This document shows, one piece after another, positions 8,898 to 63,161 of a DNA stretch of 64,000 nucleotides. Both the position numbers and the translations under genes were made by a program. Origin of the DNA: Centroscyllium fabricii (taxonomy: Eukaryota). The notes beneath the pieces are model-generated. The model ran no database searches. It was not told the origin of the DNA and saw only the letters and a list, made by a program, of their open reading frames with translations. Location: assembly GCA_051313645.2 (NCBI GenBank), contig JBNRSN020000026.1:70928001-70992000 (forward strand), read 5' to 3'. The stretch's first letter is position 1. Each line of letters starts with the position of its first letter.

Positions 8898-10860
8898 GTG
8901 GGATGGTGGGAAGGAGGGAGACCACAAGGGTTGGGTCACCACTCAGGATGGATGAGTGGGTGGGCGTTGACAGGTGGAGGGTGCACTCTCCGATGGAAAG
9001 TCTCTGAATGATGGTGGTCTTCTGGTGGGGGGAGAAGATGTCTTCACCTGGGACAGCTGGAAATGCCCAGGCTCAGTCCTCACCAGGTCTTTAACGATGT
9101 TGATTAGTTGAGTGAGTTCGCCTAGGCAGCTCCAGCTGTCCCAGGTCAGGCAATAGAGGTGGTGTTTGTTTTTTTTAGTGGTGTGCGCGGCCTAGTTTTA
9201 ATAGAGGATCCACACACACACACACACACCCCTTGATGGTCTGGCCTTCTGGTCTTCTTTTCCCCTCCCACCTATAAATACACAGTCTTTAAGAGAGTGC
9301 ACCTTAAGAAACAACACCCACCTTCAGCTGGTTCTTCTCCCTCCTTCCGAGCAGTTGGTGGTGATGATAACTTCCTCACCCCTCTCTCCCTCTCCCGAAA
9401 TGGAGGCCAATCTGGAAGGCAATGATGGGAAGGCCTCGACGTTGTTGTTTTTGCTGGATTCTTGGCCTCCCTTTTCTCTCCTCCGTCCTCTCTCCCGAGG
9501 CACCTTTAACTAATGGAATGTCCAAACCTGAGCTTCAGGTGGCAGAACGCAATGTCCAGAATGTAGGCAACCGTAGTTCTCCGAAGTCCGCTCCACAGCT
9601 AAGACTTACTCTAATCGAGATTCCAGAAGAGAATACATCATCTACAAGGCAGGGGAATGCCCAAACCCATTGCCTCTCCAGAAGCTCAGACATCAACCAC
9701 TCCTTCCAGTAGTTCGTAGTAATGAGTAGTAAGTAGAATCTAATGATCCGGCACCTGCCTGGTCAAAGCACCCAGCTTATAAGCCAAACAGGCAAACCAG
9801 ATTATTTAGTGCTAGCCAATAAGCTGCAGGTATTGAGAACCAGGAACACACAGGTATGTGAAACAGTTAAATGAGATACAATGAACAAAAACAGAGAAAC
9901 AAAACCTAGAATTCCAAAATGGATTCCTTAAAGGGGAATGCCATCTGTGACAAGGTGGGCTTGCGGTCAAATCTTTTTAAACTTTTTTACTTTTAGGCAA
10001 ACTGTCTGCCTCAGCATCTTTCAGCTTTGATATCCTGTAGTTTAACTCACTTCGCTATAATATATATATCTACCCTTTTAAACTTAAACCACTACTTGGT
10101 CTTCTGGCTAGTTCGGCCATTTTCTAAAATGTGTTTCCTGTTTTTCAACGAGGATACCTAAAATTTCCAGGTCAGCATTTACTGGAAACTGAGCCTGTGG
10201 TCAACTTCTACATTGTTATCCTACAGCCTGCAGTCATTTCAACATCTTATAGCCTATCTTTTAAATTAGCTCTAATCTTGTGGTCAACCTTTCATACACT
10301 CAGAGATCCCAACATCTGCTTCTGCCAGGAAACCAGGCAATCACTATTTCTAAGCTTCCATTTTATACAGACTAAGCAGTTTTTTTACTGAGCTTTTGGA
10401 AAGTACATTTTTAATCATCTTACATTGGCGAGAATTAAACAATTACCGTCACAGTTGTAAGCATTATTTTAAATTTCAGTTTTCCCCAAAGCTCTCCCTC
10501 TCACCGTTGACCACGCCCACCAACCTTGCATGGCCAATGAAATATGCCGAAACAAAATGAATTGGTTTTTACAAACCTTTATCTCTTTAAATTGCTGCAA
10601 TACGATTGTTTAACTGAATCACTCTCTGCCGCTGTCTCCAGCTGGTGCCCGTGGGATCTCAGTCCCAGGTACACTCAGAGGGAAGTTACTGTTCGCACTT
10701 ACAGCTGAGAGTGATTTGACGACATTCCCTGTGTAACCGGGGTTCTCCCGGAGATCCCAAACCTTTTCCCAGCTCCCGCTCCCCCTCTCACTCTGACCCG
10801 TGCTGTGTCCAAACCCTCGGCACTTTCAGAAATGACAAAACTCCTCACTTTCCCGGAGAC

Positions 10861-11373
10861 ACTTTCGCTTTCGGGTGTATTTGACACAACAAAGCTCATT
10901 TCCACCGAGAAACTGACTCGGACACTTTCCCGGGAGAGAGACCAGAAAAACAGGATGAAAGAAAAGGCAGCGGGACCCCCTTCGGACTCAGAGTGGAAAC
11001 AAATTAAATATTCTTCAAAAACCGAGTCTGAAAATGACTCCAGAAAACACCCAGGAAGGGACAACCTTAAAGAGCAGAGTCTCCGACAGGTGAATCCGGG
11101 GGAGACAATCGGCATCAGGCGGTGCCCCTGGGCTGTGAGCCGGGGTCTCTCCAATGTCCACACTCCCCCAATACAGACCCCCCTCCCCTCGACACCAGCT
11201 CAGGGCCCCGGGGATCCCAGTCCACACAACCCGGAGCTGGTGCTGATCTCCCAGCGGGGATTTTCCAGCCTCTGGTTCCGGAATCTCCAGCTTTTAGATT
11301 CCTTACCTCAGAAAGAAAGCGGACAAACTCCTGTAACTTTTCCAAACCTCCTGCGGCCCGATTTCACTTTTCC
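10861..11373 (+). promoter_or_regulatory. Distal IFN promoter, unit 1: ISRE-like 10861-10872, NF-kB 11257-11266, IRF-E 11362-11373
   Basis: ACTTTCGCTTTC (reverse GAAAGCGAAAGT), GGGATTTTCC and TTTCACTTTTCC (reverse GGAAAAGTGAAA, PRDI/IRF-E-like). The kB and IRF sites sit at about -346 and -241 from the ATG, matching the proximal promoter spacing. Confidence 0.65.
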
Positions 11374-11602
11374 AATGTAATGGTCCACATTAAAGCCGGC
11401 AGCGCGGCAGTGAGAGCTCCCACAGTGTCGAGCCGCTCACACACTCCACCCGGCAACACAGGCGCTCGCTCCCGGATCACAAGCGGCTGCATTTCGACTT
11501 CCAGTGTTTCATTTGGTGAACAGGAACCGTTTTCTGAGCTGAATCCGGATCCGCTGGGTTTCTGACAATTCCGATCGGTGCTTTACCCCGGTCCGGTCCA
11601 GC

Positions 11603-11734
11603 ATGGCTTTGGCGAGTGTTTGGAGATGTTGGATTGTGTTGGTCTTGTTGCCCGGGACCCTGAGTCTGGGCTGTGAGAGGCTGCAGTTACAGCAAGTTCT
11701 CAACACAGAGACTCTGAGCAAACTGAGTGAAATG
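11603..11734 (+). other. Orphan copy of IFN exon 1 (possible alternative first exon), unit 1
   Basis: 44 codons MALASVWRCW...KLSEM followed by intact GTGAGT donor. A decayed exon-2 homologue follows at ~11909; no exons 3-4 before the next exon 1. Confidence 0.85.
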
Positions 11735-11989
11735 GTGAGTTTAACCTGCATCCCGAGCCGGATCCGAACCACACAGGGTCTGTTTGTTGTGATAACTCAT
11801 GTCAGGAGAAATAGTTTGAAGTTGTCTGTTATTTGTGCAATTAATAGTCACTCTCCGTCAGTATTGATTTGACGGTATTAATTGTTAGTGGGACTCTCTT
11901 CTGTAACTCTTGGGATCATTCCCTGAGACTGTGCAACAGCAAAAGCTCTCTGAACCCTAGAGGGGTAATTCATCCCTGATGGGACCGAG

Positions 11990-14400
11990 AGACTCAGGTC
12001 CAGGGGATAGGCGGAATCGGGGGCTGACTAGATTGGGACATCAATACTGAGGGAGAGGGAGAATCTGATGCTGAGTGAAGAGGTGGGATCAGGCAGTGGG
12101 AGGCTAGAGAAGTTAGTCTGAGGCGAGAGGAGAATCTGGCTCTAAGCGGAGAAAGGAAATGAGAGACTGAAGAGAGGGGGGGGTCTTATACTGAGGGGAG
12201 TGGGTATCAGACTCCGAGAGAGAGAAAGGAATCAAGGTCTCGGGGAGAGAGGGATTCAGACCCTAAGGCGAGGGGGAATCAAATTTGAGGAGGAACTGGA
12301 ATCAGATACTGAGGGGATGGGGAATGAGACACGGAGGGGCAAGAGGAATAATAAAACTGAGTGAAGAGGGGAATTCAGACACTGAGGGGGAGAGGAAATG
12401 GATAACTGGGGAGAAGGTTAATATTAAATGGAGGGGAGATGACACAGACCCTGGGGGGAGGTGGGATCAGACCCCGGGGGCAGGTGGGATCAGACCTTGA
12501 GAGGATGTGGGATCAGACCCTGAGGGGAGATAGGATCAGACCCTGAGGGAGGTAGGATCAGACCCTGAGGGGATGCGGGAACAGACACTGAGGGAGGTGG
12601 GATCAGACACTGGGGGAGAATTGAAACCAGTCACTGTGGAGAAGGGGGTGCTCTAATATTGAGGAGAGATTCAGGACTGAGAAAGAGTGAGAACAAGACC
12701 CTGGAAACTGAGGAAAGAGAGGGAACCAGATATCAATGAGTGAGGGGACGAGGAATCAAACTTTGAGTGGAAGGGGGATTAGACATTGAGGGAAGGGGGA
12801 GATGAGACCTTGTGGAGAGAGAGAGAATCAGATACAGCCCCTGAGGAGAGATGTGCCCTGATATTGAAGGGGAAATGAGAGTCTGAAGGCAGAGGGGAAG
12901 CAATACTGTGGGAAAGTCAGAATGTGATGGTGAGGGAAGAGGGGAATCAGATCTTGTGGGTAGACAGAAATCAAACAATGAGCAGAGAACAGATGAGATA
13001 CTGAGGGGAGAGAGAATTAGACCCTGGTGGGAGGTGGGATCAGACTCTGTGAATCAGTGAATAGAGTGTGAGGGGAGAATGCGAACCAGACACTGTGGAG
13101 AGTGGAAATTATAAACTGAAGCAGTTACAGCAAGTTCTCAACACAGAGGCTCTTGAGTAAACCGAGTGAAATGGGGAGTTTAACCTGCATCCCGAGCCGG
13201 ATCCGAACCACACAGGGTCTGTTTGTTGTGAAAAGCCATATCAGGGGAAATAGATTGGGGGGATTTGTAATTGTATCCAATTAATTGACACCGATTCTCC
13301 TGTTTCCTTTACAAAATATATTTTTGAATGTATTTAGAGTCAGGGGGATGCCCTTCAGTTACACTGGGCATCATTCCCGGATAGTGTCCAACAGCAAAAG
13401 TTCCCTGAACCTAAGAGGGGTAATTAGACCCCCAGTGGAACAGGGGAATCAGACCCTGAGGGGACTGGGAGAATCTGATACCGAGGCCGTGGGGGGGGGG
13501 GTCCGGGTATGTGGGGGGAGGGAAAGGGATTCTCAAGGAAAGGGGGAATCAGATACCGAGGAGAGGAAGGGATTAGAGTCTGAGTGCGGAGAGGGAATCG
13601 GAATCTGGTGCGAGGTGGGATCAAATTCCGAATCAAGGGGGAAATCAGATTTTGGAGGATTTTTAATCAGACACTGAGCAGGGAGCGGGTAAGAGAGTCT
13701 GAGGGGCAAATAGAATCATAAAATGGGGAGATGACAGGGAATCAGACACTGATGGGAGAAATGGAACCGCAACATTGATCAGAGGAGTGGTCTTATATTG
13801 AGGGGAGGTGGAACCAGACCCTGGGGGGAACAGATCACCTACTGTGGGGACAGAGAGAGTCAGACCCTGGGGGCAGGTGGGCTCAGATTTACAGCGAAGG
13901 GAGGGGGCTGGGCGGTGGAAGCAAGGCCGGAGGGTGAATAGAGACCCGCAACTGAGGAGGGGGATATCCTGATATTGCGGAGGGAATCAGGTCGAAGAGA
14001 AAATGGGAAATCGAGACTGGGGAGAGAGGAATCAGAAACAGAGGAGAGAGAGGGAATCAGATATTGAGAAGAGGCAGAATTAACCATTGATTCGGAATCA
14101 GACACTGAGGCGAGGGTGAGGCCCTGACTCGGAATCAGAGCCGGAGGGATGGAGGAGATACTCCCTGTGGAGAGGGGGAATCAGGCACAGAGGGAGGGGG
14201 ATTGAAACACTGAGAGGGAGAATTACATTGAGAGGAAAGTGGGAATCAGCCTTTGGGGGTGATGGGATCTGACTGTGTGTTAAGGAGAGAATCAGATCTG
14301 AGGGGAGCGTGGAACCCAGACACGGAGGGGAGGGGGCTCATTAAATGAGTGAAGAGGGGGAATGTGAGCCTGAGAGGGGAGAAAGGGGAATCGGAGACAA
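11990..14400. repeat. Purine/G-rich degenerate ~22-bp repeat spacer (GAGGGGAG...GAATCAGACACT-like)
   Basis: Repeated gggatcagaccctg / gaatcagacactgagggg motifs with strong purine strand bias. Homologues at ~24400-25500, ~47550-49040 and ~59200-60300. Confidence 0.75.
13121..13425 (+). pseudogene. Third, truncated IFN exon 1/intron 1/exon 2 remnant (unit 1 only)
   Basis: gcagttacagcaagttctcaacacagag...gagtgaaatgGGgagttt (donor GT changed to GG, 1-nt insertion), then orphan-type intron and exon-2-like ggcatcattcccggatagtgt. Confidence 0.8.
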
Positions 14401-14545
14401 CCCATCAATCTAACCAGCTGCCCCTTTAGTGCCCCCGTGAGGCGAATCCGTTCAATTTGGAGGAACCGATATACTTTCCCCAAATTCCATATTGAGAATA
14501 TTGATACAATTCGATGAAACATTGAGCTGGTTGTGATCTTCTATC

Positions 14546-14670
14546 GGGGATTTCCCAGTCGCTGGTTCAGGAATCTCCAGCTTTTGGATTCCTTACCTCA
14601 GAAAGGAGGCGTACAAACTATTGCTCCCCTGCAGCTCCTCCAACATTCCTCCATCCCGATTTCACTTTTC
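14546..14670 (+). promoter_or_regulatory. Proximal IFN promoter, gene 1: NF-kB 14546-14556, IRF-E 14660-14670
   Basis: GGGGATTTCCC and TTTCACTTTTC at about -351 and -238 from the ATG; conserved in the other units. Confidence 0.7.
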
Positions 14671-14897
14671 GATTCTAATGGCCACATCGCCAGTCCCTCC
14701 TCTTATAGTGGGAGCTCCCACAGTGTCCAGCCGCTCACACACACTCCACAACACAACTGGTCGCTCCCGGAGCACAAGCGGCTGCATTTCCACTTCCAGA
14801 GTTTAATTCGGTGAACATGAACCGTTTTCTGAGCTGAATCCCGATCCACTGGGTTTCCGACCCTTCAGATCGGTGCTTTACCCCGGCTCGGTCCAGC

Positions 14898-17141
14898 ATG
14901 GCTTTGGCGAGTGTTTGGGGATGTTGGATTGTGTTGGTCTTGTTGCCCGGGACCCTGAGTCTGGGCTGTGTGAGGCTGCAGTTACAGCAAGTTCTCAACA
15001 CAGAGACTCTGAGCAAACTGAGTGAAATGGTGAGTTTAACCTGCATCCCGAGCCGGATCCGAACCATCTACTTTCTGCTCATTGTGGAAAGTTATAACCG
15101 GAGAAAATGTTTGTGGTGTTTGTAATTTGACACAATTAATAGGCAGCGATGTTCCAGTATTTCAGTGGGGCTGATTGTAACACTGACTGTCTTCTCCTCT
15201 CAGGGCGGCCCCTTTCCCCGACAGTGTGTAAGAGAGAGGCTCCGGCTGAAAACCAAGCCCTTCAATCTGGTGAAACTTTCAGAGGGATTACAGGTGAGCG
15301 AACTCTATTTTAGTTGACGTTATTCAAACAAAAGTTTTATACAAAGCATGAGTAAGATAAACAAGCTGATCAGAATTTTAATCAAGATATTTAAATCCAG
15401 TGTTAGTTGCCCATTGAAGTTAAAATGACAGTCGAGCCATTAACTCACTCTATGTCACTCTCTCTAACTAGCTCTCTCTCTCTAACTAGCTCACTCTCTC
15501 TAACTAGCTCACTCTCTCTAACTAGCTCACCCTCTCTAACCAGCTCACTCTCTCTAACTAGCTCACTCTCTCTAACTAGCTCACCCTCTCTAACTAGCTC
15601 ACTCTCTCTAACTAGCTCACCCTCTCTAACCAGCTCACTCTCTCTAACTAGCTCACTCTCTCTAACTAGCTCACTCTCTCTAACTAGCTCACCCTCTCTA
15701 ACTAGCTCACTCTCTCTAACTGGCTCACCCTCTCTAACCAGCTCACTCTCTCTAACTAGCTCACTCTCTCTAACTAGCTCACCCTCTCTAACCAGCTCAC
15801 TCTCTCTAACTAGCTCACTCTCTCTAACTAGCTCACCCTCTCTAACCAGCTCACTCTCTCTAACTAGCTCACTCTCTCTAACTAGCTCACTCTCTCTAAC
15901 TAGCTCACCCTCTCTAACTAGCTCACTCTCTCTAACTCACCTATTATCTCACTGCCATTAACTATCTAACTCTCTCTGATCATCTCACACCCTCTATTCA
16001 TTGAAGCCCCTCTAATCTTCCATTCTGCTCCCTAGATGATCTCACCCATCCTTTGACTATCCTTTTACTATGTCATAGAATTATAGAATGGTTCCAGCAC
16101 ATAAGGAGGCCATTCGGCCCGTCGAGCCAGTGCCGGCTCTCTGCAAGAACACTTCAGCTAGTCCCGCTCCACCGCCCTTTCCCCGTGGCCCTGCTATTTT
16201 TTCAGGTATTTAACCAATTCCCTTTTGAAACCCACAAATATTTTATGCTTCTAAAACACATTTGGGAGCCCTTTAATATCCCCCACTAATCTATTCCATA
16301 CATTCTCTTTGAACCTCATTTCCCTTTTCAGTTGTTCTTCACACTTTCTGCATTCAGCTTGGTCCTCTACTGTATTATAAGCTTAACGTTTATCATAAGC
16401 CTCCTTTAGCTGTTTCATTGAAATCTCCACCTTCAGTGATCCGGGGAGAGATAGCTTTGCATGCTCTGCCTTCCCCCTGGTGCGAATGTGTCTAGACTGC
16501 ACCCAAACCATCTTCTCTTTGAAGCCTTTCCATTGCTAATTTACTGTTTCACCTGCAAATCCTAGATTCCAATACACTGGAATGAGCCCTCCTCCAGTTG
16601 ACTATTGTCACTTGTGATTGATGCTTGTCCTTTTCCATAACTGCTCGAAACCTAAAAAGGAACAGGTCCCCTCTAACGACCTTGTGTGTATTGTGCACAG
16701 ACCCAGGACAGGATCCAGATTGTCCATCAAACACTGCGTCACCTCACCAAGATCTACAGCATGAACCTGGGCTCAGTCACATGGCCCCGGGACAAGGTGG
16801 AAAACTTCCGTCTTCTCCTGGATCGGCAGCTCGGGGAGCTGGAAGAATGTGTCAGGAAACCGGGCCCAGAGTCCAGGCCCAGGAGAATCGCCTCAATTCA
16901 CAAATACTTCAAAAGACTGAGAAAGTTTCTCAAACAGAAGGTGGGACAATTGATATTTTACTGAGATTACTGACACTTTCAGTCACCCGATTTAAACCTG
17001 TTCATTCTCTAATGGATTTTCCTGAATATTTCTCTTCCTCAGAGATTCAGTGACTGCGCCTGGGAAATAATCCGCGCTGAGACCAGAGCCCGATTACAAC
17101 AGATCCTTTTCATAACGGCACAAATCAGAAGAAGAAACTGA
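14898..17141 (+). CDS. ifn: Type I interferon, copy 1 (186 aa); exons 14898-15029, 15204-15293, 16701-16940, 17043-17141
   Basis: GT-AG phase-0 introns. Spliced protein: signal peptide MALASVWGCWIVLVLLPGTLSLG; GGPFPRQC...; ...LEECV...YFKRLRKFLKQK; RFSDCAWEIIRAET...IRRRN*. CAWE motif and Cys24/52/124/159 are typical of 4-Cys type I IFN. Confidence 0.93.
15456..15940. repeat. 18-bp minisatellite (CTCACTCTCTCTAACTAG)n in intron 2, gene 1
   Basis: Directly visible; produces the spurious SLTSSL ORF. Confidence 0.95.
16073..16200 (-). mobile_element. Old CR1-type LINE 3'-end fragment (antisense) in intron 2, present in all genes
   Basis: catagaattatagaatgg...ggaggccattcggccc resembles the reverse complement of a CR1/HER1-type 3' tail. 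Confidence 0.55.
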
Positions 17142-17602: not shown

Positions 17603-18524
17603 ATGTTGCAGATTTTTCACAACGTGTAAAGTCAAAAATGAGAAGAAGTAACGGAAGATTTCTCAATGACATGTTTAACACAGACTGAGAACGATGAGAT
17701 ATTTTAAAGACCTCGAATTTTAAAATGTATATATTTTAATATCTGTAACGTATTGCTAATTTTAGACTGTTGTCAGCTTGGCTCAGAGGTAATACTCTAA
17801 GTCAGAAGGTTCTGGCTCCAAACCCCACTCCCAAATCAACTCTTTCATTTCCATTCAGCTTTATGAGGCTCCTTATTCCAGTCGCTGAACTTCCAGTGAC
17901 AACTCTCTGCACTGGGAATGCCCGGCCAATACTCAGCTCTGTCACTGGCTTTCATGGCACTGATTGGCTCTCGATGGTGGGGTTGCGGAACAATGACCCA
18001 TGACCTGATCCCTGACCTGCACTGACCTTTACATTTCCGCTCTCCCAGCGGCCAACACTCCAACTCGTCCCGGGTATTCCTAATTTATTGATATTTATAG
18101 TTGTGATGTTTTCTACAATGTGTAAATTGGGTTCAGAAAGAACTGTTAATTTATTCATATTTATTCAGATTTGGGGAACAAATTTTTTCTACACTGGAAA
18201 CTTTTTATACTGAATGAGAACATGTTGGTGTAAATAAATTGTTTACAATATAACATTTTTATTGGAGTCATATTTATTTCTCATTTGCATCTGTCAGGTT
18301 TCCAGACTCACTATAAATGCTCTGGATTGCTCTGCCTGCTGCCTCTGACTGGCATTACCTCTCCGCTCGATTCCCCACTGGCTGATATTTTCTCGCCTGT
18401 CAAAATTGTGAATCCATTTTGAACCCAATTGGCTCAATATTCATGGGGAGGGGAATGAGTGGAGAGTGGGAGTGAAAGTCTTGTATATGGCACCTAATCA
18501 TGCACCTTCTGCAAAGCTGTATCG

Positions 18525-18730
18525 TTACCACTGACTGTATCCCTTTTGCTGTATATGTGAGCTTCTTGAAAACTCAGTAGAATTATTCAAGCACCAGGTG
18601 ATCTTCACAGATTCATGGTGACTGTCCCTAATGAGCCAATGTCTTTCCAACTGTTCACTAATTTCATCCCAGACTATGGACTCCATAATTTTACCCACAG
18701 CTGAGGTAAGGCTAAAAGAGATATAATTTG
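18525..18730 (-). mobile_element. Degenerate CR1 RT fragment (repeated in each complete unit)
   Basis: Translation SLTSAVGKIMESIVWDEISEQLERHWLIRDSHH resembles the CR1 RT segment SLTSVVGK..E.I....I..HL....LI.DSQHGF. Confidence 0.65.
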
Positions 18731-19012
18731 TGTCACCCTTCAATCTTTTGGCAAGATACTTGATTTCAAAGTTATGTGGGTTGTGATTATTTCTTCTTTC
18801 TGTCATTGAGGCAATTCATCACTTTCTTGCTCTGCATATGATCTGCACCTGGTGAATTTTCTACTTCCTACTTTCAGTCGCACTTACTTTTTTTATCCTC
18901 CCTTCCCCTTTGCTCCCTTGTTACTCACTTCATCCTTGCTTTTGTATATTTATCTCCATTGCTCGATTGTACATTCCCCTCAGGTTCCATTTTCACCTTC
19001 TTCAGTAACAAC

Positions 19013-19454
19013 TGTGTCTCAGTGGGGAACACTCTTGCCTGTGAGTCGGAAGATTGTGGGTTTAAGTCCCACTCCAATGACTTGAGCACAAAATCTCGGC
19101 TGAAGGAGTGCTGCACTGTCGGAGGTGCTGTCTTTCTGATGAAATGTTAAACCGAGGCCCTGTCTGCTCTCTCAGGTGGATGTCAGAGATCCCATGGCAT
19201 TATTGCGAAGTAGCGCACGGGAGTTATCGCCGGTGTCCTGACCAATATTTATCCCTCAATCAACATCAGTCAAAACCGGATGATGTTGTCATTATCACAT
19301 TGCTGTTTGTGGGAGCTTGCTGTGTGTAATTTGGGTGCCGAGTTTCCTACAGTACAACAGTGTCTACACTTTTAATGTGTTTCCTTGGCTGTAAAGCACT
19401 TCGGGACGTGCGGTGGGCGTGAATGGCGCTATAAAAATGCAAGCCTTTCTTTCT
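19013..19454 (+). mobile_element. tRNA-derived Deu-domain SINE (SacSINE1/AmnSINE-like)
   Basis: tRNA-like head (ctcagtgg...gggtttaagtccc), central gagtgctgcactgtcggaggtgc...aaaccgaggccc, L2-type tail gcgctat(a)aaatgcaag. Family assigned from memory. Confidence 0.65.
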
Positions 19455-21578
19455 AACAGGCATGTTACAGATTAAGGATCTTTACCACTTATTCAAACTC
19501 AAGTACACGCACAGGAACTAAGGCTTGTGGCCTAAAATATTATCCCATCTTCCCATGATATTTTATGGGGAGGGCAAATGGGTCAGTTTATTCCCACATT
19601 TGCCCCCTTTGCATTCCCCACCATTCCAGCTTCCGCTCTTCATCCCTCTGTGTTGCACCCACTCACTCGCATCACAATCTCTACCTCTTCTCATTTGAAC
19701 TAGTGACTAGTTTGTGTAATCAGACTGTCGAGTTCACAGAAACAAGACCCGGAATAAATGTCAACATAGGAAGATATAATTGGCAAAAGCAAACTGGAGA
19801 TTTCGCTCGTTTGTGTTGGTTTTTTTCAGCGTAATTCGTCTTAAATCGATGAAACCTGTGCAAATGGTGATGGAAAGTTAAGCGCAAATTACGCCCAGCG
19901 GAAATAAAGTTGCCGCTATTTTTGCACCAGTTTAAGAAACATCACTCTAGGAGCCGGCACCACCCACAAAACTGGCCTCGTCCCTCGGTCCAATTACTCA
20001 CCATCGGGATTTTCTGCTAATTCTGCTCATTTGCTGCCTTCGCGGAGGCTCCAAAAATTAAAATGCTTCTTTTGAAATAAAGACAGACTTGCATTTATGT
20101 AGCGCCTTTCAAACACACCAGACATCTGGTAGCGCTTTACAGCCAATAAATACTTTTTGAACTGTAGTCACCGATGGAATGCAGGTCATTTGGGGGCAAG
20201 GACACTAATAGGCATATATTAAAAACATTTGAATTTATTTTTAACCTTTTTAATTTAATTAGACTCTGACCCCAATATACCCCAATATAACTAACAAAGG
20301 TTTCTGTATCATTTTTAAAAGTCATTTTCAATCATTTAATTTAAAATTGGGTTACTTACAGTTGGTGGATTGAAACAGTGTTTAAATAATGCTTAATTTT
20401 TACATTAACCCGATTTTCAGCTGTATTAATCAAACTGCACCAAGTTACAACTCTTAAATATATCGAGTAATAATTTTAAAGGCAATTTGTTTAAGTTACG
20501 TTTTAAAACGCCGCCCGGTTGCGATGGTTCATCCGAAAGAACAACAGAAAACGCTGGAGAAACTCAGCAGGCCAGGCAGCATCGGTGGAGAGAGAAACAG
20601 AGTTAACAGTTTGTGGAATCTGACCAAGGGAGTCACTTCACTTCAGCTGTGTCTGTGGAAAAAGGACTTTGGTATTTCGAAGCCGGACAGAATTTATACA
20701 TATGCATTGAAAACAAATCCAAATGCACTCTGGCCTGTAAATAAAGGCCATGGCAGTGTTTGCCCAAAATTGGGAAACAGATTAAGAGGGCCATCAAGAT
20801 TGAGTAGGCCCATCGATACCGATTGGAAACAAATCAAGGTTGTTGTCGACCGGTAGCGACGATTACCGGCCAGCCAAAAGTTGTTAACTAGACCACTACC
20901 CTTTGTTAAATTAGCCAGCCAAAGCAAAAGACAAAGAACTGACCTGATTTGGTGGGAGATAAGGGTTTCGTCAGAAATGTATAACTGGGAACCCAGGGTA
21001 GCCATCTGGGGACAATCTTCTCAGCAGCTCTCGTCTCTGGTTCGTCTGTATCGATTTCTAGTTTCTCTGCTCCTGGTTCATGGCAGGTTTTGATTTGAAC
21101 GATTTGCAAATGGAAACTCGAAAGAAATCGCTTCTCAAAACTGGCGCAATTTTGGTAGTGGGATGGTAGGGGGGGCAAAGTAGGCAAAAGTGGGGATAAA
21201 CTGACATATGAAGTTCGACAAAGTGGAAACACTGCCCCAAACATGTGACAGAAAGGTAACATCGGGAAGTCAAGTAATGCAGAAGGATTTGTGCATGAAT
21301 GTAAGATTATTATATATTATAGATTAATGTGCTGATAAGATTCCTTGCTGTTTAACTTTATGTTGTCTACCAGTGTTCTTTAATATTCCACCTTAAATTT
21401 CCATATCTCCTTTTCGTCTCCATTCTAAACTTTTTATAAATCATACAGTTTTATTCGGCATTAGGGTACTATTAACAGCCTCTGCTGCCTCGGCCCGAAG
21501 CTCTGAAATTCCCTGCCTAAATCTCTCTGCCTCTTTACCTCTCTTTCCTCCTATAGACCCTCCTTAAAACCTACTTCT

Positions 21579-24007: not shown

Positions 24008-24139
24008 ATGGCTTTGGCGAGTGTTTGGAGATGTTGGATTGTGTTGGTCTTGTTGCCCGGGACCCTGAGTCTGGGCTGTGAGAGGCTGCAGTTACAGCAA
24101 GTTCTCAACACAGAGACTCTGAGCAAACTGAGTGAAATG
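24008..24139 (+). other. Orphan copy of IFN exon 1, unit 2
   Basis: Intact ATG, 44 codons and GTGAGT donor; decayed exon 2 downstream. Confidence 0.85.
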
Positions 24140-26061: not shown

Positions 26062-28355
26062 ATGGCTTTGGCGAGTGTTTGGAGATGTTGGATTGTGTTG
26101 GTCTTGTTGCCCGGGACCCTGAGTCTGGGCTGTGAGAGGCTGCAGTTACAGCAAGTTCTCAACACAGAGACTCTGAGCAAACTGAGTGAAATGGTGAGTT
26201 TAACCTGCATCCCGAGCCGGATCCGAACCATCTACTTTGTGCTCCTTGTGGAAAGTTATATCAGGAGAACATGTTTGTGGTGTTTGTAATTTGACACAAT
26301 TAATAGGCAGCGATGTTCCAGTATTTCAGTGGGGCTGATTGTAACACTGACTGTCTGCTCCACTCAGGGCGGCCCCTTTCCCCGACAGTGTGTAAGAGAG
26401 AGGCTCCGACTGAAAACCAAGCCCTTGAATCTGGTGAAACTTTCAGAGGGATTACAGGTGAGTGAACTCTATTTCATTTGACTTTATTCAAACAAAAGTT
26501 TAATACAAAGCATGAGTAAGATAAACAAGCTGATCAGAATTTTAATCAGGAAATTTAAATCCAGTGTTAGTTGCCCATTGAAGTTAAAATGCCAGTCGAG
26601 CCATTCACTCACTCTGTGTCACTCTCTCTAACTAGCTCTCTCTCTAACTAGCTCACTCTCTAACTAGCTCACTCTCTCCAACTAGCTCACCCTCTCTAAC
26701 TAGCTCTCTCTCTCTAACTAGCTCCCTCTCTCTAACTAGCTCCCTCTCTCTAACTAGCTCAATCTCTCTAACTAGCTCACTCTCTCTAACTAGCTCACCC
26801 TCTCTAACTAGCTCACTCTCACTAACTAGCTCCCTCTCTGTAACTGGCTCCCTCTCTCTAACTAGCTCACTCTCTCTAACTAGCTCACTCTCTCTAAATA
26901 GCTCACCCTCTCTAACTAGCTCCCTCTCTCTAACTAGCTCACCCTCTCTAACTAGCTCCCTCTTTGTAACTAGCTCACTCTCTCTTACTATTTCACTCTC
27001 TCTAACTAGCTCAATCTCTCTAACTAGCTCACTCTCTCTAACTAGCTCACTCTCTCTAACTAGCTCCCTCTCTCTAACTAGCTCACTCTCTCTAACTAGC
27101 TCACTCTCTCTAACTAACTCCCTTTCTCTAACTAGCTCACTCTCTCTATCTCACCTATTATCTCACTCCCATTAACTACTAACTCCCTCTAATCATCTCA
27201 CACCCTCTATTCATTGAAACCCCGCTAATCTTCCATTCTCCTCCCTAGATGATCGCACCCATCCTTTGACTATCCTTTTACTATTTCATAGAATTAGAGA
27301 ATGGTTCCCGCACATAAGGAGGCCATTCGGCCCATCGAGCCAGTGCCGGCTCTCTGCAAGAACACTTCAGCTAGTCCCGCTCCACCGCCCTTTCCCCGTG
27401 GCCCTGCCATTTTTTCAGGAATTTAACCAATTCCCTTTTGAAACCCACAAATCTTTTTATGCTTCTAAAACACATTTGGGAGCCCTTTAATATCCCCCAC
27501 TAATCTATTCCATACATTCTCTTTGAACCTCATTGCCCTTTTCAGTTGTTCTTCACACTTTCTGCATTCAGCTTGGTTCTCTACTGTATTATAAGCTTAA
27601 CTTTGGTCATAAGCCTCCTTTAGCTGTTTCATTGAAATCTCCACCTTCAGTGATCCGGGGAGAGATAGCTTTGCATGCCCTGCCTTTCCCCTGGTGCGAA
27701 TGTGTCTAGACTGCACCCAAACCATCTTCTCTTTCAAGGCTGTCCATTGTATATTTTCTATTTCACCTGCAAATCCTAGATTCCAATACACTGGAATGAG
27801 CCCTCCTCCAGTTGACTATTGTCACTTGTGATTGATGCTTGTCCTTTTCCATAACTGCTCGAAACCTAAAAAGGGACAGGTCCCCTCTAACGACCTTGTG
27901 TGTATTGTGCACAGACCCAGGACAGGATCCAGATTGTCCATCAAACACTGCATCACCTCACCAAGATCTACAGCATGAACCCGGGCTCAGTCACATGGCT
28001 CCGGGACAAGGTGGAAAACTTCCGTCTTCTCCTGGATCGGCAGCTCGGGGAGCTGGAAGAATGTGTCAGGAAACCGGGAACAGAGTCCAGGCCCAGGAGA
28101 ATCGCCTCAATTCACAAATACTTTAAAAAACTGAGAAAGTTTCTCAAACAGAAGGTGGGACAATTGATATTTTACTGAGATTACTGACACTTTAAGTCAC
28201 CCGATTTAAACCTGTTCATTCTCTAATAGATTTTCCTGAATATTTCTCTTTCTCAGAGATTCAGTGACTGCGCCTGGGAAATAATCCGCGCTGAGACCAG
28301 GGCCCGATTACAACAGATCCTTTTCATAACGGCAAAAATCAGAAGAAGAAACTGA
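26062..28355 (+). CDS. ifn: Type I interferon, copy 2 (186 aa); exons 26062-26193, 26368-26457, 27915-28154, 28257-28355
   Basis: Intact splice sites and frame; CAWE motif; carries the MNPGSVTWLRD variant. Confidence 0.93.
26619..27150. repeat. 18-bp intron-2 minisatellite, gene 2
   Basis: (CTCACTCTCTCTAACTAG)n with variant units. Confidence 0.95.
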
Positions 28356-36200: not shown

Positions 36201-36839
36201 ATGATCTTATTGAATGGCGGAGCAGGCTCGAGGGGCCGAGAGGCCCATTCCTGCTCCTATTTCTTATGTTCTGATGTTCTTATGTAATTCTTTGAACAGG
36301 CTCCCGGACACCTGCCCTAATTTATCTTTATGTGACTCGGTGTCAATTTTTCTGTCTTAAAACACTCCCGGGAAGCGGCTTGTGACGTTTTACTATGTTA
36401 AAGGCGCTATATAAATGCAAATTGTTTTTGCTGTTGTTGTAAGCATTATTTTAAATTTCAGTTTTCCTCCAAGCTCTCCCTCTCACCGTTGACCACGCCC
36501 ACCAACCTTGCATGGCCAATGAAATGTGCCGAAACAAAATGAAATGGTTTTTACAAACCTTTATCTCTTTAAATTGCTGCAATACGATTGTTTAACTGAA
36601 TCACTCTGCGGTGTCTCCAGCTGGTGCCCGTGGGATCTCAGTCCCAGGTACACTCGGAGGGAAGTTACTGTTCGCAGTTACAGCTGAGAGTGATTTGACG
36701 ACATTCCCTGTGTAACCGGGGTTCTCCCGGAGATCCCAAACCTTTTCCCAGCTCCCGCTCCCCCTCTCACTCTGACCCGTGCTGTGTCCAAACCCTCCGC
36801 ACTTTCGGAAATGACAAAACTCCTCACTTTCCCGGAGAC

Positions 36840-37345
36840 ACTTTCGCTTTCGGGTGAATTTGACACAAAGCTCATTTCCACCGAGAAACTGACTCGGACA
36901 CTTTCCCGGGAGAGAGACCAGAAAAACAGGATGAAAGAAAAGGCAGCGGGACCCCCTTCGGACTCAGAGTGGAAACAAATTAAATATTCTTCAAAAACCG
37001 AGTCTGAAAATGACTCCAGAAAACACCCAGGAAGGGACATCCTTAAAGAGCAGAGTCTCCGACAGGTGAATCCGGGGGAGACAGTCGGCATCAGGCGGTG
37101 CCCCTGGGCTGTGAGCCGGGGTCTCTCCAATGTCCACACTCCCCCAATACAGACCCCCCCTCGACACCAGCTCAGGGCCCCGGGGATCCCAGTCCACACA
37201 ACCCGGAGCTGGTGCTGATCTCCCAGCGGGGATTTTCCAGCCTCTGGTTCCGGAATCTCCAGCTTTTAGATTCTTTACCTCAGAAAGAAAGCGGACAAAC
37301 TCCGGTAACTTTTCCAAAACTCCTGCGGCCCGATTTCACTTTTCC
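36840..37345 (+). promoter_or_regulatory. Distal-type promoter directly upstream of gene 3 (ISRE 36840-36851, NF-kB 37229-37238, IRF-E 37334-37345)
   Basis: Upstream sequence matches the orphan/distal type, not the proximal type. Confidence 0.7.
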
Positions 37346-37574
37346 AATGTAATGGTCCACATTAAAGCCGGCAGCGCGGCAGTGAGAGCTCCCACAGTGT
37401 CGAGCCGCTCACACACTCCACCCGGCAACACAGGCGCTCGCTCCCGGATCACAAGCGGCTGCATTTCGACTTCCAGAGTTTCATTCGGTGAACAGGAACC
37501 GTTTTCTGAGCTGAATCCGGATCCGCTGGGTTTCTGACAACTCCGATCGGTGCGTTACCCGGGCTCGGTCCAAC

Positions 37575-39814
37575 ATGGCTTTGGCGAGTGTTTGGAGATG
37601 TTGGATTGTGTTGGTCTTGTTGCCCGGGACCCTGAGTCTGGGCTGTGAGAGGCTGCAGTTACAGCAAGTTCTCAACACAGAGACTCTGAGCAAACTGAGT
37701 GAAATGGTGAGTTTAACCTGCATCCCGAGCCGGATCCGAACCATCTACTTTCTGCTCCTTGTGGAAAGTTATATCAGGAGAACATGTTTGTGGTGTTTGT
37801 AATTTGACACAATTAATAGGCAGCGATGTTCCAGTATTTCAGTGGGGCTGATTGTAACACTGACTGTCTGCTCCACTCAGGGCGGCCCCTTTCCCCGACA
37901 GTGTGTAAGAGAGAGGCTCCGACTGAAAACCAAGCCCTTGAATCTGGTGAAACTTTCAGAGGGATTACAGGTGAGTGAACTCTATTTCATTTGACTTTAT
38001 TCAAACAAAAGTTTAATACAAAGCACGAGTAAGATAAACAAGCTGATCAGAATTTTAATCAGGAAATTTAAATCCAGTGTTAGTTGCCCATTGAAGTTAA
38101 AATGCCAGTCGAGCCATTCACTCACTCTGTGTCACTCTCTCTAACTAGCTCTCTCTCTAACTAGCTCACTCTCTAACTAGCTCACTCTCTCTAACTAGCT
38201 CACCCTCTCTAACTAGCTCTCTCTCTCTAACTAGTTCCCTCTCTCTAACTAGCTCCCTCTCTCTAACTAGCTCAATCTCTCTAACTAGCTCACTCTCTCT
38301 AACTAGCTCACCCTCTCTAACTAGCTCACTCTCACTAACTAGCTCCCTCTCTGTAACTGGCTCACTCTCTCTAACTAGCTCACTCTCTCTAACTAGCTCA
38401 CTCTCTCTAAATAGCTCACCCTCTCTAACTAGCTCCCTCTCTCTAACTAGCTCACCCTCTCTTACTAGCTCCCTCTTTGTAACTAGCTCACTCTCTCTTA
38501 CTATCTCACTCTCTCTAACTAGCTCAATCTCTCTAACTAGCTCACTCTCTCTAACTAGCTCACTCTCTCTAACTAGCTCACTCTCTCTAACTAGCTCACT
38601 CTCTCTATCTCACCTATTATCTCACTTCCATTAACTACTAACTCCCTCTAATCATCTCACACCCTCTATTCATTGAAACCCCTCTAATCTTCCATTCTCC
38701 TCCCTAGATGATCGCACCCATCCTTTGACTATCCTTTTACTATTTCATAGAATTAGAGAATGGTTCCCGCACATAAGGAGGCCATTCGGCCCATCGAGCC
38801 AGTGCCGGCTCTCTGCAAGAACACTTCAGCTAGTCCCGCTCCACCGCCCTTTCCCCGTGGCCCTGCCATTTTTTCAGGAATTTAACCAATTCCCTTTTGA
38901 AACCCACAAATCTTTTTATGCTTCTAAAACACATTTGGGAGCCCTTTAATATCACCCACTAATCTATTCCATACATTCTCTTTGAACCTCATTGCCCTTT
39001 TCAGTTGTTCTTCACACTTTCTGCATTCAGCTTGGTTCTCTACTGTATTATAAGCTTAACTTTGGTCATAAGCCTCCTTTAGCTGTTTCATTGAAATCTC
39101 CACCTTCAGTGATCCGGGGAGAGATAGCTTTGCATGCCCTGCCTTTCCCCTGGTGCGAATGTGTCTAGACTGCACCCAAACCATCTTCTCTTTCAAGGCT
39201 GTCCATTGTATATTTTCTATTTCACCTGCAAATCCTAGATTCCAATACACTGGAATGAGCCCTCCTCCAGTTGACTATTGTCACTTGTGATTGATGCTTG
39301 TCCTTTTCCATAACTGCTCGAAACCTAAAAAGGAACAGGTCCCCTCTAACGACCTTGTGTGTATTGTGCACAGACCCAGGACAGGATCCAGATTGTCCAT
39401 CAAACACTGCATCACCTCACCAAGATCTACAGCATGAACCTGGGCTCAGTCACATGGCCCCGGGACAAGGTGGAAAACTTCCGTCTTCTCCTGGATCGGC
39501 AGCTCGGGGAGCTGGAAGAATGTGTCAGGAAACCGGGAACAGAGTCCAGGCCCAGGAGAATCGCCTCAATTCACAAATACTTTAAAAAACTGAGAAAGTT
39601 TCTCAAACAGAAGGTGGGACAATTGATATTTTACTGAGATTACTGACACTTTAAGTCACCCGATTTAAACCTGTTCATTCTCTAATAGATTTTCCTGAAT
39701 ATTTCTCTTTCTCAGAGATTCAGTGACTGCGCCTGGGAAATAATCCGCGCTGAGACCAGGGCCCGATTACAACAGATCCTTTTCATAACGGCAAAAATCA
39801 GAAGAAGAAACTGA
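37575..39814 (+). CDS. ifn: Type I interferon, copy 3 (186 aa); exons 37575-37706, 37881-37970, 39374-39613, 39716-39814
   Basis: Intact splice sites and frame; CAWE motif; chimeric promoter. Confidence 0.93.
38132..38610. repeat. 18-bp intron-2 minisatellite, gene 3
   Basis: Directly visible. Confidence 0.95.
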
Positions 39815-47161: not shown

Positions 47162-47293
47162 ATGGCTTTGGCGAGTGTTTGGAGATGTTGGATTGTGTTG
47201 GTCGTGTTGCCCGGGACCCTGAGTCTGGGCTGTGTGAGGCTGCAGTTACAGCAAGTTCTCAACACAGAGACTCTGAGCAAACTGAGTGAAATG
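47162..47293 (+). other. Orphan copy of IFN exon 1, unit 4
   Basis: Intact ATG, 44 codons (V15 and V25 variants) and GTGAGT donor. Confidence 0.85.
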
Positions 47294-49604: not shown

Positions 49605-51658
49605 ATGGCTTTGGCGAGTGTTTGGAGATGTTGGATTGTGTTGGTCTTGTTGCCCGGGACCCTGAGTCTGGGCTGTGAGAGGCTGCAGTTACAGCAAGTT
49701 CTCAACACAGAGACTCTGAGCAAACTGAGTGAAATGGTGAGTTTAACCTGCATCCCGAGCCGGATCCGAACCATCTACTTTCTGCTCATTGTGGAAAGTT
49801 ATATCAGGAGAAAATGTTTGTGGTGTTTGTAATTTGACACAATTAATAGGCAGCGATGTTCCAGTATTTCAGTGGGGCTGACTTTAATACAGACTGTCTG
49901 CTCCTCTCAGGGCGGCCCCTTTCCCCGACAGTGTGTAAGAGAGAGGCTCCGGCTGAAAACCAAGCCCTTCAATCTGGTGAAACTTTCAGAGGGATTACAG
50001 GTGAGTGAACTCTATTTCATTGGACTTTATTCAAACAAAAGTTTTATACAAAGCATGAGTAAGATAAACAAGCTGATCAGAATTTTAATCAAGATATTTA
50101 AATCCAGTGTTAGTTGCCCATTGAAGTTAAAATGCCAGTCGAGCCATTCACTCACTCTATGTCACTCTCTCTAACTAGCTCAATCACTCTAACTAGCTCA
50201 CTCTCTCTAACTAGCTCAATCTCTCAAACTAGCTCACTCTCTCTAACTAGCTCACTCTCTCTAACTAGCTCACCCTCTCTAACTAGCTCCCTCTCTCTAA
50301 CTAGCTCACTCTCTCTAACTAGCTCACTCTCTCTAACTAGCTCACTCTCCCTAACTAGCTCTCTAACTAGCTCAATCTCTCTAACTAGCTCACTCTCTCT
50401 AACTAGCTCACTCTCTCTAACTAGCTCTCTAACTAGCTCACTCTCTCTATCTCACCTATTATCTCACTGCCATTAACTGCTAACTCCCTCTAATCATCTC
50501 ACACCCTCTATTCATTGAAGCCCCTCTAATCTTCCATTCTGGTTCCTAGATGATCCCACCCATCCTTTGATTATCCTTTTACTATTTCATAGAATTATAG
50601 AATGGTTCCCGCACATAAGAAGGCCATTCGGCCCGTTGAGCCAGTGCCGGCTCTCTGCAAGAACACTTCAGCTAGTCCCGCTCCCCCGCCCTTTCCCCGT
50701 GGCCCTGCCATTTTTTCAGGTAATTAACCAATTCCCTTTTGAATGTCACAAATCTTTTTTATGCTTCTAAAACACATTTGGGAGTCCTTTAATATCCCCC
50801 ACCAATCTAATCCCATACATTCTCTTTGAACCTCATTTCCCTTTTCAGTTGTTCTTCACACTTTCTGAATTCAGCTTGGTTCTCTACTGTATTATTAGCT
50901 TAACGTTTGTCATAAGCCTCCTTTAGCTGTTTCATTGACATCTCCACCTTCAGTGATCCGGGGAGAGATAGCTTTGCATGCCCTGCCTTTCCCCTGGTGC
51001 GAATGTGTCTAGACTGCACCCAAACCATCTTCTCTTTGAAGGCTTTCCATTGCTAATTTACTGTTACACCTGCAAATCCTAGATTCCAATACACTGGAAT
51101 TAGCCCTCCTCCAGTTGACTATTGTCACTTGTGATTGATGCTTGTCCTTTTCCATAACTGCTCGAAACCTAAAAAGGAACAGGTCCCCTCTAACGACCTT
51201 GTGTGTATTGTGCACAGACCCAGGACAGGATCCAGATTGTCCATCAAACACTGCGTCACCTCACCAAGATCTACAGCATGAACCTGGACTCAGTCACATG
51301 GCCCCGGGACAAGGTGGAAAACTTCCGTCTTCTCCTGGATCGGCAGCTCGGGGAGCTGGAAGAATGTGTCAGGAAACAGGGCCCAGATTCCAGGCCCAGG
51401 AGAATCACCTCAATTCACAAATACTTCAAAAAACTGAGAAAGTTTCTCAAACAGAAGGTGGGACAATTGATATTTTATTGAGATAACTGACACTTTCAGT
51501 CTCCCGATTTAAACCTGTTCATTCTCTAATGGATTTTCCTGAATATTTCTCTTTCTCAGAGATTCAGTGACTGCGCCTGGGAAATAATCCGCGCTGAGAC
51601 CAGGGCCCGATTACAACAGATCCTTTTCATAACGGCACAAATCAGAAGAAGAAACTGA
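49605..51658 (+). CDS. ifn: Type I interferon, copy 4 (186 aa); exons 49605-49736, 49911-50000, 51218-51457, 51560-51658
   Basis: Intact splice sites and frame; CAWE motif; variants NLDS, KQGPDS and RITS. Confidence 0.93.
50163..50450. repeat. 18-bp intron-2 minisatellite, gene 4 (shortest array)
   Basis: Directly visible. Confidence 0.95.
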
Positions 51659-58813: not shown

Positions 58814-58945
58814 ATGGCTTTGGCGAGTGTTTGGAGATGTTGGATTGTGTTGGTCTTGTTGCCCGGGACCCTGAGTCTGGGCTGTGAGAGGCTGCAGTTA
58901 CAGCAAGTTCTCAACACAGAGACTCTGAGCAAACTGAGTGAAATG
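58814..58945 (+). other. Orphan copy of IFN exon 1, unit 5
   Basis: Intact ATG, 44 codons and GTGAGT donor. Confidence 0.85.
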
Positions 58946-60867: not shown

Positions 60868-63161
60868 ATGGCTTTGGCGAGTGTTTGGAGATGTTGGATT
60901 GTGTTGGTCTTGTTGCCCGGGACCCTGAGTCTGGGCTGTGAGAGGCTGCAGTTACAGCAAGTTCTCAACACAGAGACTCTGAGCAAACTGAGTGAAATGG
61001 TGAGTTTAACCTGCATCCCGAGCCGGATCCGAACCATCTACTTTGTGCTCCTTGTGGAAAGTTATATCAGGAGAACATGTTTGTGGTGTTTGTAATTTGA
61101 CACAATTAATAGGCAGCGATGTTCCAGTATTTCAGTGGGGCTGATTGTAACACTGACTGTCTGCTCCACTCAGGGCGGCCCCTTTCCCCGACAGTGTGTA
61201 AGAGAGAGGCTCCGACTGAAAACCAAGCCCTTGAATCTGGTGAAACTTTCAGAGGGATTACAGGTGAGTGAACTCTATTTCATTTGACTTTATTCAAACA
61301 AAAGTTTAATACAAAGCACGAGTAAGATAAACAAGCTGATCAGAATTTTAATCAGGAAATTTAAATCCAGTGTTAGTTGCCCATTGAAGTTAAAATGCCA
61401 GTCGAGCCATTCACTCACTCTGTGTCACTCTCTCTAACTAGCTCTCTCTCTAACTAGCTCACTCTCTAACTAGCTCACTCTCTCCAACTAGCTCACCCTC
61501 TCTAACTAGCTCTCTCTCTCTAACTAGCTCCCTCTCTCTAACTAGCTCCCTCTCTCTAACTAGCTCAATCTCTCTAACTAGCTCACTCTCTCTAACTAGC
61601 TCACCCTCTCTAACTAGCTCACTCTCACTAACTAGCTCCCTCTCTGTAACTGGCTCCCTCTCTCTAACTAGCTCACTCTCTCTAACTAGCTCACTCTCTC
61701 TAAATAGCTCACCCTCTCTAACTAGCTCCCTCTCTCTAACTAGCTCACCCTCTCTAACTAGCTCCCTCTTTGTAACTAGCTCACTCTCTCTTACTATTTC
61801 ACTCTCTCTAACTAGCTCAATCTCTCTAACTAGCTCACTCTCTCTAACTAGCTCACTCTCTCTAACTAGCTCCCTCTCTCTAACTAGCTCACTCTCTCTA
61901 ACTAGCACACTCTCTCTAACTAACTCCCTTTCTCTAACTAGCTCACTCTCTCTATCTCACCTATTATCTCACTCCCATTAACTACTAACTCCCTCTAATC
62001 ATCTCACACCCTCTATTCATTGAAACCCCTCTAATCTTCCATTCTCCTCCCTAGATGATCGCACCCATCCTTTGACTATCCTTTTACTATTTCATAGAAT
62101 TAGAGAATGGTTCCCGCACATAAGGAGGCCATTCGGCCCATCGAGCCAGTGCCGGCTCTCTGCAAGAACACTTCAGCTAGTCCCGCTCCACCGCCCTTTC
62201 CCCGTGGCCCTGCCATTTTTTCAGGAATTTAACCAATTCCCTTTTGAAACCCACAAATCTTTTTATGCTTCTAAAACACATTTGGGAGCCCTTTAATATC
62301 CCCCACTAATCTATTCCATACATTCTCTTTGAACCTCATTGCCCTTTTCAGTTGTTCTTCACACTTTCTGCATTCAGCTTGGTTCTCTACTGTATTATAA
62401 GCTTAACTTTGGTCATAAGCCTCCTTTAGCTGTTTCATTGAAATCTCCACCTTCAGTGATCCGGGGAGAGATAGCTTTGCATGCCCTGCCTTTCCCCTGG
62501 TGCGAATGTGTCTAGACTGCACCCAAACCATCTTCTCTTTCAAGGCTGTCCATTGTATATTTTCTATTTCACCTGCAAATCCTAGATTCCAATACACTGG
62601 AATGAGCCCTCCTCCAGTTGACTATTGTCACTTGTGATTGATGCTTGTCCTTTTCCATAACTGCTCGAAACCTAAAAAGGGACAGGTCCCCTCTAACGAC
62701 CTTGTGTGTATTGTGCACAGACCCAGGACAGGATCCAGATTGTCCATCAAACACTGCATCACCTCACCAAGATCTACAGCATGAACCCGGGCTCAGTCAC
62801 ATGGCTCCGGGACAAGGTGGAAAACTTCCGTCTTCTCCTGGATCGGCAGCTCGGGGAGCTGGAAGAATGTGTCAGGAAACCGGGAACAGAGTCCAGGCCC
62901 AGGAGAATCGCCTCAATTCACAAATACTTTAAAAAACTGAGAAAGTTTCTCAAACAGAAGGTGGGACAATTGATATTTTACTGAGATTACTGACACTTTA
63001 AGTCACCCGATTTAAACCTGTTCATTCTCTAATAGATTTTCCTGAATATTTCTCTTTCTCAGAGATTCAGTGACTGCGCCTGGGAAATAATCCGCGCTGA
63101 GACCAGGGCCCGATTACAACAGATCCTTTTCATAACGGCAAAAATCAGAAGAAGAAACTGA
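60868..63161 (+). CDS. ifn: Type I interferon, copy 5 (186 aa, same protein as copy 2); exons 60868-60999, 61174-61263, 62721-62960, 63063-63161
   Basis: Intact splice sites and frame; CAWE motif. Confidence 0.93.
61425..61956. repeat. 18-bp intron-2 minisatellite, gene 5
   Basis: Same variant-unit pattern as in gene 2. Confidence 0.95.

Follow-up and report, generated by a model that had tools for sequence, protein, structure and literature searches.

Type I interferon (IFN) genes with more than one start have been described in teleosts, in which group I IFNa/IFNphi1 genes of Atlantic salmon, zebrafish and rainbow trout have two promoter regions or 5' variants. According to two sources (PMC5127012, PMC3828176, which cite the salmon and zebrafish two-start data), an upstream and a downstream start of an intron-containing gene feed the same downstream exons, the long form is intracellular and without a signal peptide, and the trout forms come from splicing of 5' introns. 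Tandem clusters of variable first exons in UGT1A, GCNT2 and the clustered protocadherins (Pcdh) vary the protein (PMC1885805), and in chelicerate sDscam the downstream cassettes compete with the cap-proximal one (PMC4835542). In these clusters, units of promoter and first coding exon are duplicated before shared constant exons, promoter choice and cap-proximal splicing are proposed, and conversion is reported among Pcdh exons. Cartilaginous-fish type I IFN genes that contain introns have expanded by birth and death (PMC6640115), and the accessible text of that phylogeny study contains no mention of the word promoter; no report of an IFN gene with duplicated promoter and exon 1 was found in the literature searched (subscription papers and supplements were outside its scope). 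Here we describe such a layout in 64,000 nucleotides of the shark Centroscyllium fabricii (GenBank assembly GCA_051313645.2, contig JBNRSN020000026.1, positions 70,928,001 to 70,992,000 of the forward strand; the window), which is part of a tandem array of 20 four-exon type I IFN genes of the same cartilaginous-fish family. Judged from sequence comparison, there is an even chance that each gene has two live tandem promoters, derived from an old partial duplication, that would both give one essentially identical secreted interferon.

A search of the shark's own genome identified 20 copies of exon 3 between 70.77 and 71.13 Mb of the contig (C778) and a second, older IFN cluster near 18.7-19.0 Mb of C778; the comparison covered 424 kb at the array and 200 kb at this second cluster. 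Each gene contains four coding exons of 44, 30, 80 and 32 codons for a product of 186 codons, and exons 2-4 were open, with GT/AG ends and phase-0 introns, in 20/20 units. Exon 3 of unit 1 matched the Pfam family Interferon (PF00143) with 43.5 bits (cut-off 26.8, E 4.9e-11) while exon 4 matched the C-terminal end of the same family with a score under the cut-off. The closest database relatives of exon 3 were shark and ray interferons, many of them of 186 residues, with identities to predicted elasmobranch IFNs of 59-89%; 39 of 78 candidate proteins passed the interferon domain test, all of them named shark or ray proteins. By domain match and multi-exon structure, the array is assigned to the intron-containing type I interferons of cartilaginous fish.

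In 19 of the 20 units a separate upstream, or distal, promoter and exon 1 (D) was noted besides the gene-adjacent, or proximal, promoter and exon 1 (P); the remaining unit, unit 3 of the window, carried the D promoter only. In unit 1 the D module begins with an upstream enhancer containing an exact interferon-stimulated response element (ISRE)-like motif (10860..10872, minus strand; other copies at 23270, 36839, 46426 and 58076), followed by a predicted NF-kB-like (kB) site (11256..11266, plus strand), a predicted IFN regulatory factor element (IRF-E)-like site (11360..11371, minus strand), both by consensus match, and a core/start block delimited by alignment (11372..11477) with a TATA-like element at 11386-11395, which is of the ancestral type and constrained. 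Distal exon 1 (11603..11734), with 44 codons and a GTGAGT donor, leads into distal intron 1 and a decayed exon 2 remnant (11735..12000) that has stops and no AG. The spacer between D and P contains a degenerate purine-rich 23-mer minisatellite (12242..12647) and a third, truncated copy of exon 1 with an intron remnant (13121..13425), which consists of the 3' half and has a 1-nt insertion and no donor. This promoterless half exon, present in unit 1 and four other units (5/20), has decayed, unlike the distal exon. The P promoter and 5' untranslated region (14524..14897) span only about 370 nt, with a kB site at 14546-14556, an IRF-E at 14658-14669, a changed TATA-like block at 14700-14708 and an AG 29 nt before the ATG; proximal exon 1 (14898..15029), a P intron 1 of 174 nt, exon 2 with the shared acceptor (15204..15293), exon 3 with the PF00143 match (16701..16940) and exon 4 (17043..17141) follow. 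The features from 11372 onward, and those of the units below, are on the plus strand. Motifs resembling kB, IRF-E and TATA, as motif matches only, stood ahead of both D and P exon 1, while the ISRE-like motif was found 600-900 nt upstream in 19/20 D promoters as opposed to 0/20 P promoters and was present in a single-promoter paralog too. The names NF-kB, IRF-E, ISRE and TATA are applied by consensus match and are putative. Distal and proximal exon 1 code for one and the same hydrophobic N-terminus, predicted from that hydrophobicity and from knowledge of the family to be a signal peptide followed by the first mature residues.

The same arrangement was present in unit 2 (distal exon 1 24008..24139; gene 26062..28355, with proximal exon 1 26062-26193, exon 2 26368-26457, exon 3 27915-28154 and exon 4 28257-28355), unit 4 (distal exon 1 47162..47293; gene 49605..51658, with proximal exon 1 49605-49736, exon 2 49911-50000, exon 3 51218-51457 and exon 4 51560-51658) and unit 5 (distal exon 1 58814..58945; gene 60868..63161, with proximal exon 1 60868-60999, exon 2 61174-61263, exon 3 62721-62960 and exon 4 63063-63161). 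In unit 3 (36436..39814) the D enhancer and promoter lead into an exon 1 (37575-37706) that is followed by the P intron and by exons 2-4, all intact, a fusion that leaves a single promoter. DNA runs covered unit 2 from D to P in 30/30 bins, which argues against an assembly artefact, though these runs may be from the assembly's own sample. At C778:71094772-71102143 an orphan distal promoter was cut off just past its kB site, where a stretch of ~7.1 kb sets in that is present three times in the region analysed.

A sequence-only reading of the window had placed second exons 1 at 11603, 24008, 47162 and 58814, 2.0-3.3 kb upstream of the genes, and this was borne out; each has an ATG in the context of the gene copy, 44 open codons and a phase-0 GTGAGT donor, and they lie 3295, 2054, 2443 and 2054 nt from the gene-adjacent ATG in units 1, 2, 4 and 5, respectively. 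The match between D and P exon 1 was far above chance (98.5% over 132 nt, E 3e-63), and the exon 2 acceptors at 15204, 26368, 49911 and 61174 were, as proposed, intact and in phase. NF-kB and IRF-E motifs were present in both promoters but not at the equal spacing that had been claimed, the starts being at -347 and -241 in D versus -352 and -238 in P because of an 8-nt deletion in D. The upstream exon 2, described as having lost its AG and as containing stops, had no AG and had stops in all three frames, and it is only a faint remnant, with a weak likeness to exon 2 (p ~0.012-0.016, 500 shuffles). Likewise, exon 2 of the gene was the next exon-2 acceptor but not the sole AG with a pyrimidine tract, since a loose scan by pyrimidine count alone gave 7-10 other candidates per intron, including the AG 29 nt before the P start codon. 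The fusion in unit 3 (37575) and the third exon 1 at 13121 in unit 1 had been overlooked.

Compared with teleost IFNa/IFNphi1, the shark gene would likewise have two starts, one upstream and one downstream, that lead into the same exons, with a motif content that differs between starts (ISRE only at D). It differs in that the whole exon 1 coding for the signal peptide is duplicated, so that the upstream form without a signal peptide seen in teleosts is not what distal exon 1 encodes; both forms would be secreted and near-identical, the lineage is separate, and the shark case is known here from sequence. As in UGT1A and Pcdh, each first exon has its own promoter motifs, and a phase-0 donor was present in 20/20 D copies. 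However, whereas UGT1A, GCNT2, Pcdh and sDscam diversify the protein over many first exons, the shark gene has two that are kept identical, without distinct protein ends or any fixed difference between D and P in exon 1, and the whole two-headed gene has been amplified.

The identity of the two exons 1 was restricted to a short tract. In a comparison of three units against four paralogs, D and P agreed at 99% of positions across exon 1 and the 36 intron bases next to it, at 92% in the leader and at 79% in the core promoter, and in what remains of intron 1 the identity was 64%. The single-promoter paralogs of the second cluster then served as outgroup (17/19 D, 16/18 P and 2/4 outgroup rows, the rest being omitted because of indels or rearrangement of the upstream DNA). 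In 116 sites of intron 1, 23 changes were D-only and 18 were P-only, as opposed to 0 D-only and 0 P-only changes in 129 sites of exon 1, where 7 differences from the outgroup were noted. In trees, which left out the P copy that carries an insertion, D and P split with support in core and intron but were intermixed in exon 1, and 8 D and 7 P copies were identical over exon 1 and its edges. A near-identical exon 1 inside diverged flanks indicates an old duplication in which exon 1 is held together by conversion. Crossover products were also present: unit 3 runs from the D promoter through exon 1 into the P intron, with the crossover between 37561 and ~37744, and the reciprocal recombinant at C778:70829387, with a P promoter on a D intron, belongs to a unit with three exons 1. 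With near-identity in a bounded tract, trees that depend on region and crossovers in both directions, the D and P exons are duplicates under concerted evolution. A like pattern is known from truncated tandem paralogs that evolve in concert with a neighbour, where near-identity is patchy and sharply bounded and recombinants of the two reciprocal kinds, deletion and duplication, occur. The shark case differs from them in that it is the truncated copy whose promoter core is better conserved and that no downstream exons of its own intervene before the gene.

Conversion has two consequences for how the distal exon is read. Used or not, the exon would be expected to have an open frame and a good donor, so the argument for use that the sequence-only reading drew from intact ATG, frame and donor is weak when taken alone. 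Similarly, the claim that the two products would differ at residue 25 (E versus V) was right for units 1 and 4 but not as a mark of D and P products, V being found in 5 D and 1 P copies; this residue distinguishes the D from the P exon in 6/19 dual units, in both directions, and was rejected as an isoform mark in favour of an E/V polymorphism common to D and P copies. Diversity within the array was dropped as a test of selection, since variation among units was about as low in the dead exon 2 remnant (pi 0.009) as in D exon 1 (0.0065). The main rival explanation, in which D acts as an enhancer for P only and D exon 1 is a passenger kept by conversion whose transcripts, if any, would be unproductive, draws on the same results. 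Conversion is required by the data, the P promoter has no ISRE of its own and would cause the D enhancer to be retained anyway, and a competing P donor, an acceptor at -29 and poly(A) hexamers lie between distal exon 1 and exon 2; in sDscam (PMC4835542), downstream cassettes also splice to the constant exon. We consider this explanation less likely than not, though more likely than the other rivals, for the reasons that follow.

The first of these reasons concerns the core promoter. Single-promoter paralogs and D have in common the upstream enhancer region, the ISRE-like element and the TATA-like core, whereas P differs from these paralogs in having a promoter of only ~370 nt and a changed core; D is of ancestral character. 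This changes the framing of the locus, in which the distal module would be the ancestral-type promoter and the proximal core the altered one, and it is from the paralogs only that the age and spread of the two-module layout may be judged. Between IRF-E and the leader edge, a block chosen after the alignment had been viewed, 24 P-only versus 6-7 D-only changes were counted in ~100 sites (p 0.001-0.003, three alignments). The D core was slower than the D intron (p 0.009), whereas the P core was not slower than the P intron (p 0.12). Because D and P are least alike in the core, conversion from P cannot explain the constraint on the D core, and an enhancer-only role for D does not predict constraint on its TATA-like/start block. 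In the tree of the core promoter the P branch was much longer, but bootstrap support was unsettled and site counts were used instead. Borrowing of the P core block from another paralog was unsupported, since the 20 occurrences of the motif in the genome all lie inside this array.

The second reason concerns damage to exon 1. Behind 20/20 D promoters exon 1 was intact with a phase-0 GTGAGT donor, whereas the gene-adjacent P exon 1 was damaged in 4/19 units, above open exons 2-4, and intact in 15/19; this difference (Fisher p 0.047) falls to p 0.125 when the P lesions are taken as the three independent events that they represent. The lesions comprised two losses of the start codon with loss of Cys24, one insertion of 1.1 kb and one donor weakened by a change at +3. 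Upstream ATGs were present in 4/20 P leaders as opposed to 0/20 D leaders, and in unit 3 a natural intact gene has D as its sole promoter. An enhancer-only D gives no account of lesions that sit on P with none on D, nor of decay in the promoterless third exon 1 of the same spacer, although that copy is a shorter target for conversion.

Details of the affected units were also noted. The upstream ATG in the proximal leader of unit 1, at -81, opens a frame of six codons (window 14817-14837). The insertion at C778:71118279-71119403 is about 1.1 kb long, with an 8-bp target duplication, short terminal inverted repeats and a part resembling a short interspersed element; it resembles a non-autonomous hAT-type element, a putative assignment. 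In the two units without a proximal start codon (C778:70887725 and C778:71027767) codon 44 is the next in-frame ATG, and a start at that codon would produce a form that lacks the signal peptide, like that of trout, but an ATG in another frame comes before it.

The asymmetry between D and P could also be taken further, to the view that D is the real or dominant promoter and the P promoter and exon 1 are a relic within a long first intron. Lesions and upstream ATGs are on P only, the P core changed at or above the intron rate (24/100 versus 18/116), D matches the single-promoter paralogs, and the sole leader contig seen is D-like (below). However, P keeps its kB, IRF-E and TATA-like motifs in 19-20/20 copies, with 5 P-only changes in 118 sites of the kB and IRF-E block and the TATA-like motif in 20/20, and 15/19 P exons are intact; moreover, the short P intron favours P splicing and the natural recombinant with a P promoter on a D intron indicates that exchange runs in both directions. 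We therefore regard a relic P as improbable, well behind an enhancer-only D.

Of the sequencing runs listed as containing this stretch, none is recorded as RNA, which speaks neither for nor against use. Transcript contigs from a related organism (run X1) were informative to a limited extent. One contig of 393 nt was spliced from exon 1 to exon 2 and continued into sequence resembling exon 3, but it aligned as either 11733>15203 or 26192>26367 and fits both D and P exons; the joint 11733>15203 was rejected as evidence for distal splicing for this reason. A second contig, of 226 nt, was placed on the D leader in both alignments and carried the D allele at -50 (19/19 D and 2/18 P-promoter copies) and at -31 (16/19 D and 1/18 P-promoter copies), counts that omit three copies with leader deletions. 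The distal intron and spacer were uncovered in X1, which is uninformative at a depth of 4-5, and in run X2 neither exon 1 nor exon 2 had a contig. Joints at 25844>25979 and 25403>26142 in the P region, from DNA runs X3 and X5, were read as contigs of paralogs or truncated copies.

A number of these results weigh against use of the distal exon as a second start. The X1 leader contig also carried P/ancestral alleles at -36, -35 and -14 and is weak evidence, since that species may have one promoter and the depth was low; the junction contig does not discriminate. A transcript from D must bypass an identical and nearer P donor, 174 nt from exon 2, and the AG at -29 of the P start, present in 19/19 gene-adjacent P copies, would if used add 161 nt and lead to a frameshift with a stop at codon 30, while the spacer holds 1-3 poly(A)-like A(A/T)TAAA hexamers. 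Conversion alone could keep D exon 1 intact, given 0 fixed differences, and the near equal invariance of the dead exon 2 remnant and the small number of independent P lesions point the same way, as does the post hoc choice of the constrained block; in a wider window, from -370 to -151, the asymmetry was weak (18 versus 13), and the kB site was altered in 5/20 D versus 1/20 P promoters. A further proposal, that distal transcription is a brake which reads through the P promoter or splices into P exon 1 at the -29 AG to give frameshifted RNA and damped P output, could point to the retention of this AG in P and its loss in 16/19 upstream D copies, but the AG is the ancestral state, found in single-promoter paralogs, and a brake gives no reason for an intact D-only gene or for P lesions, which makes it very improbable.

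Two tandem promoters for one secreted protein are therefore the reading that we favour, at even chances. The layout, the conversion and the recombinants are seen in the sequence itself, while we infer the order of events, and with it transcription at D and a splice that joins D exon 1 to exon 2, as follows. An old partial duplication would have left an upstream copy with the original enhancer, core promoter and exon 1 but a dead exon 2, and a downstream copy with a promoter of ~370 nt and working exons 2-4. The composite two-promoter unit would then have been amplified, with conversion and crossover in the shared tract of ~300 nt keeping the exons alike and altering promoter number. Distal transcripts would leave out the proximal exon, their cap-proximal donor being spliced to exon 2. 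The gain would lie in regulation, with no new protein: ISRE-linked feedback on D, kB/IRF input on both promoters, and a backup if one exon is hit. Dual-promoter use as first suggested is thus plausible, with indirect support, while a meaningful difference in protein is unsupported. We put forward only tentatively, as less likely than not, the stronger proposal that the main or feedback start is the upstream promoter with its linked ISRE, that P is a rewired and partly dispensable second start, that units change between one, two and three promoters through recombination in exon 1, and that broken-looking genes, with a lost start codon or an insertion in exon 1, are still expressed via the distal exon.

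Other features of the array and of the second cluster were noted in the course of these comparisons. Blocks of 10.7 kb at 18501-29194 and 53311-64000 of the window were 99.3% identical, indicative of a very recent duplication within the array. An 18-mer minisatellite in intron 2 (window 15455-15937 and 26619-27148) differed in copy number between units, and related sequence was present in intron 2 of the second cluster. Direct repeats before the first unit (window 393-2480 and 9506-9952) matched over 923 nt at 98% and, about 8.5 kb apart, over 447 nt at 97%, and possibly belong to a long-terminal-repeat element. In the second cluster, two IFN genes (C778:18751640 and C778:18802411) had another type of exon 1, 50% identical, together with an exon 3 that was 90% identical to that of the array, and predicted proteins of other sharks (P0005, P0007) contained the same mix, which suggests that shark interferons may exchange 5' and 3' halves. 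A distant paralog at C778:18760604-18760900 (minus strand) had an AG ~29 nt before its ATG and a donor-like site further upstream, and some shark interferon genes may have an intron in the 5' untranslated region.

Control of interferon in cartilaginous fish is almost unstudied, and the array holds its own controls in the form of a D-only unit, a three-exon unit and units with a damaged P exon. Were the distal exon unused, the locus would still illustrate clearly how an exon can look functional through conversion alone. If the distal exon is used, gene counts change, in that as many as four units in which the gene-adjacent exon 1 is damaged would count as live genes, and, were the stronger proposal above true, the array would amount to a natural set of variant promoters for a single cytokine. 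Use of the distal exon would also mean that sharks came to two-start regulation of IFN independently of the teleosts, through duplication of a coding first exon, the identity of which is kept by conversion.

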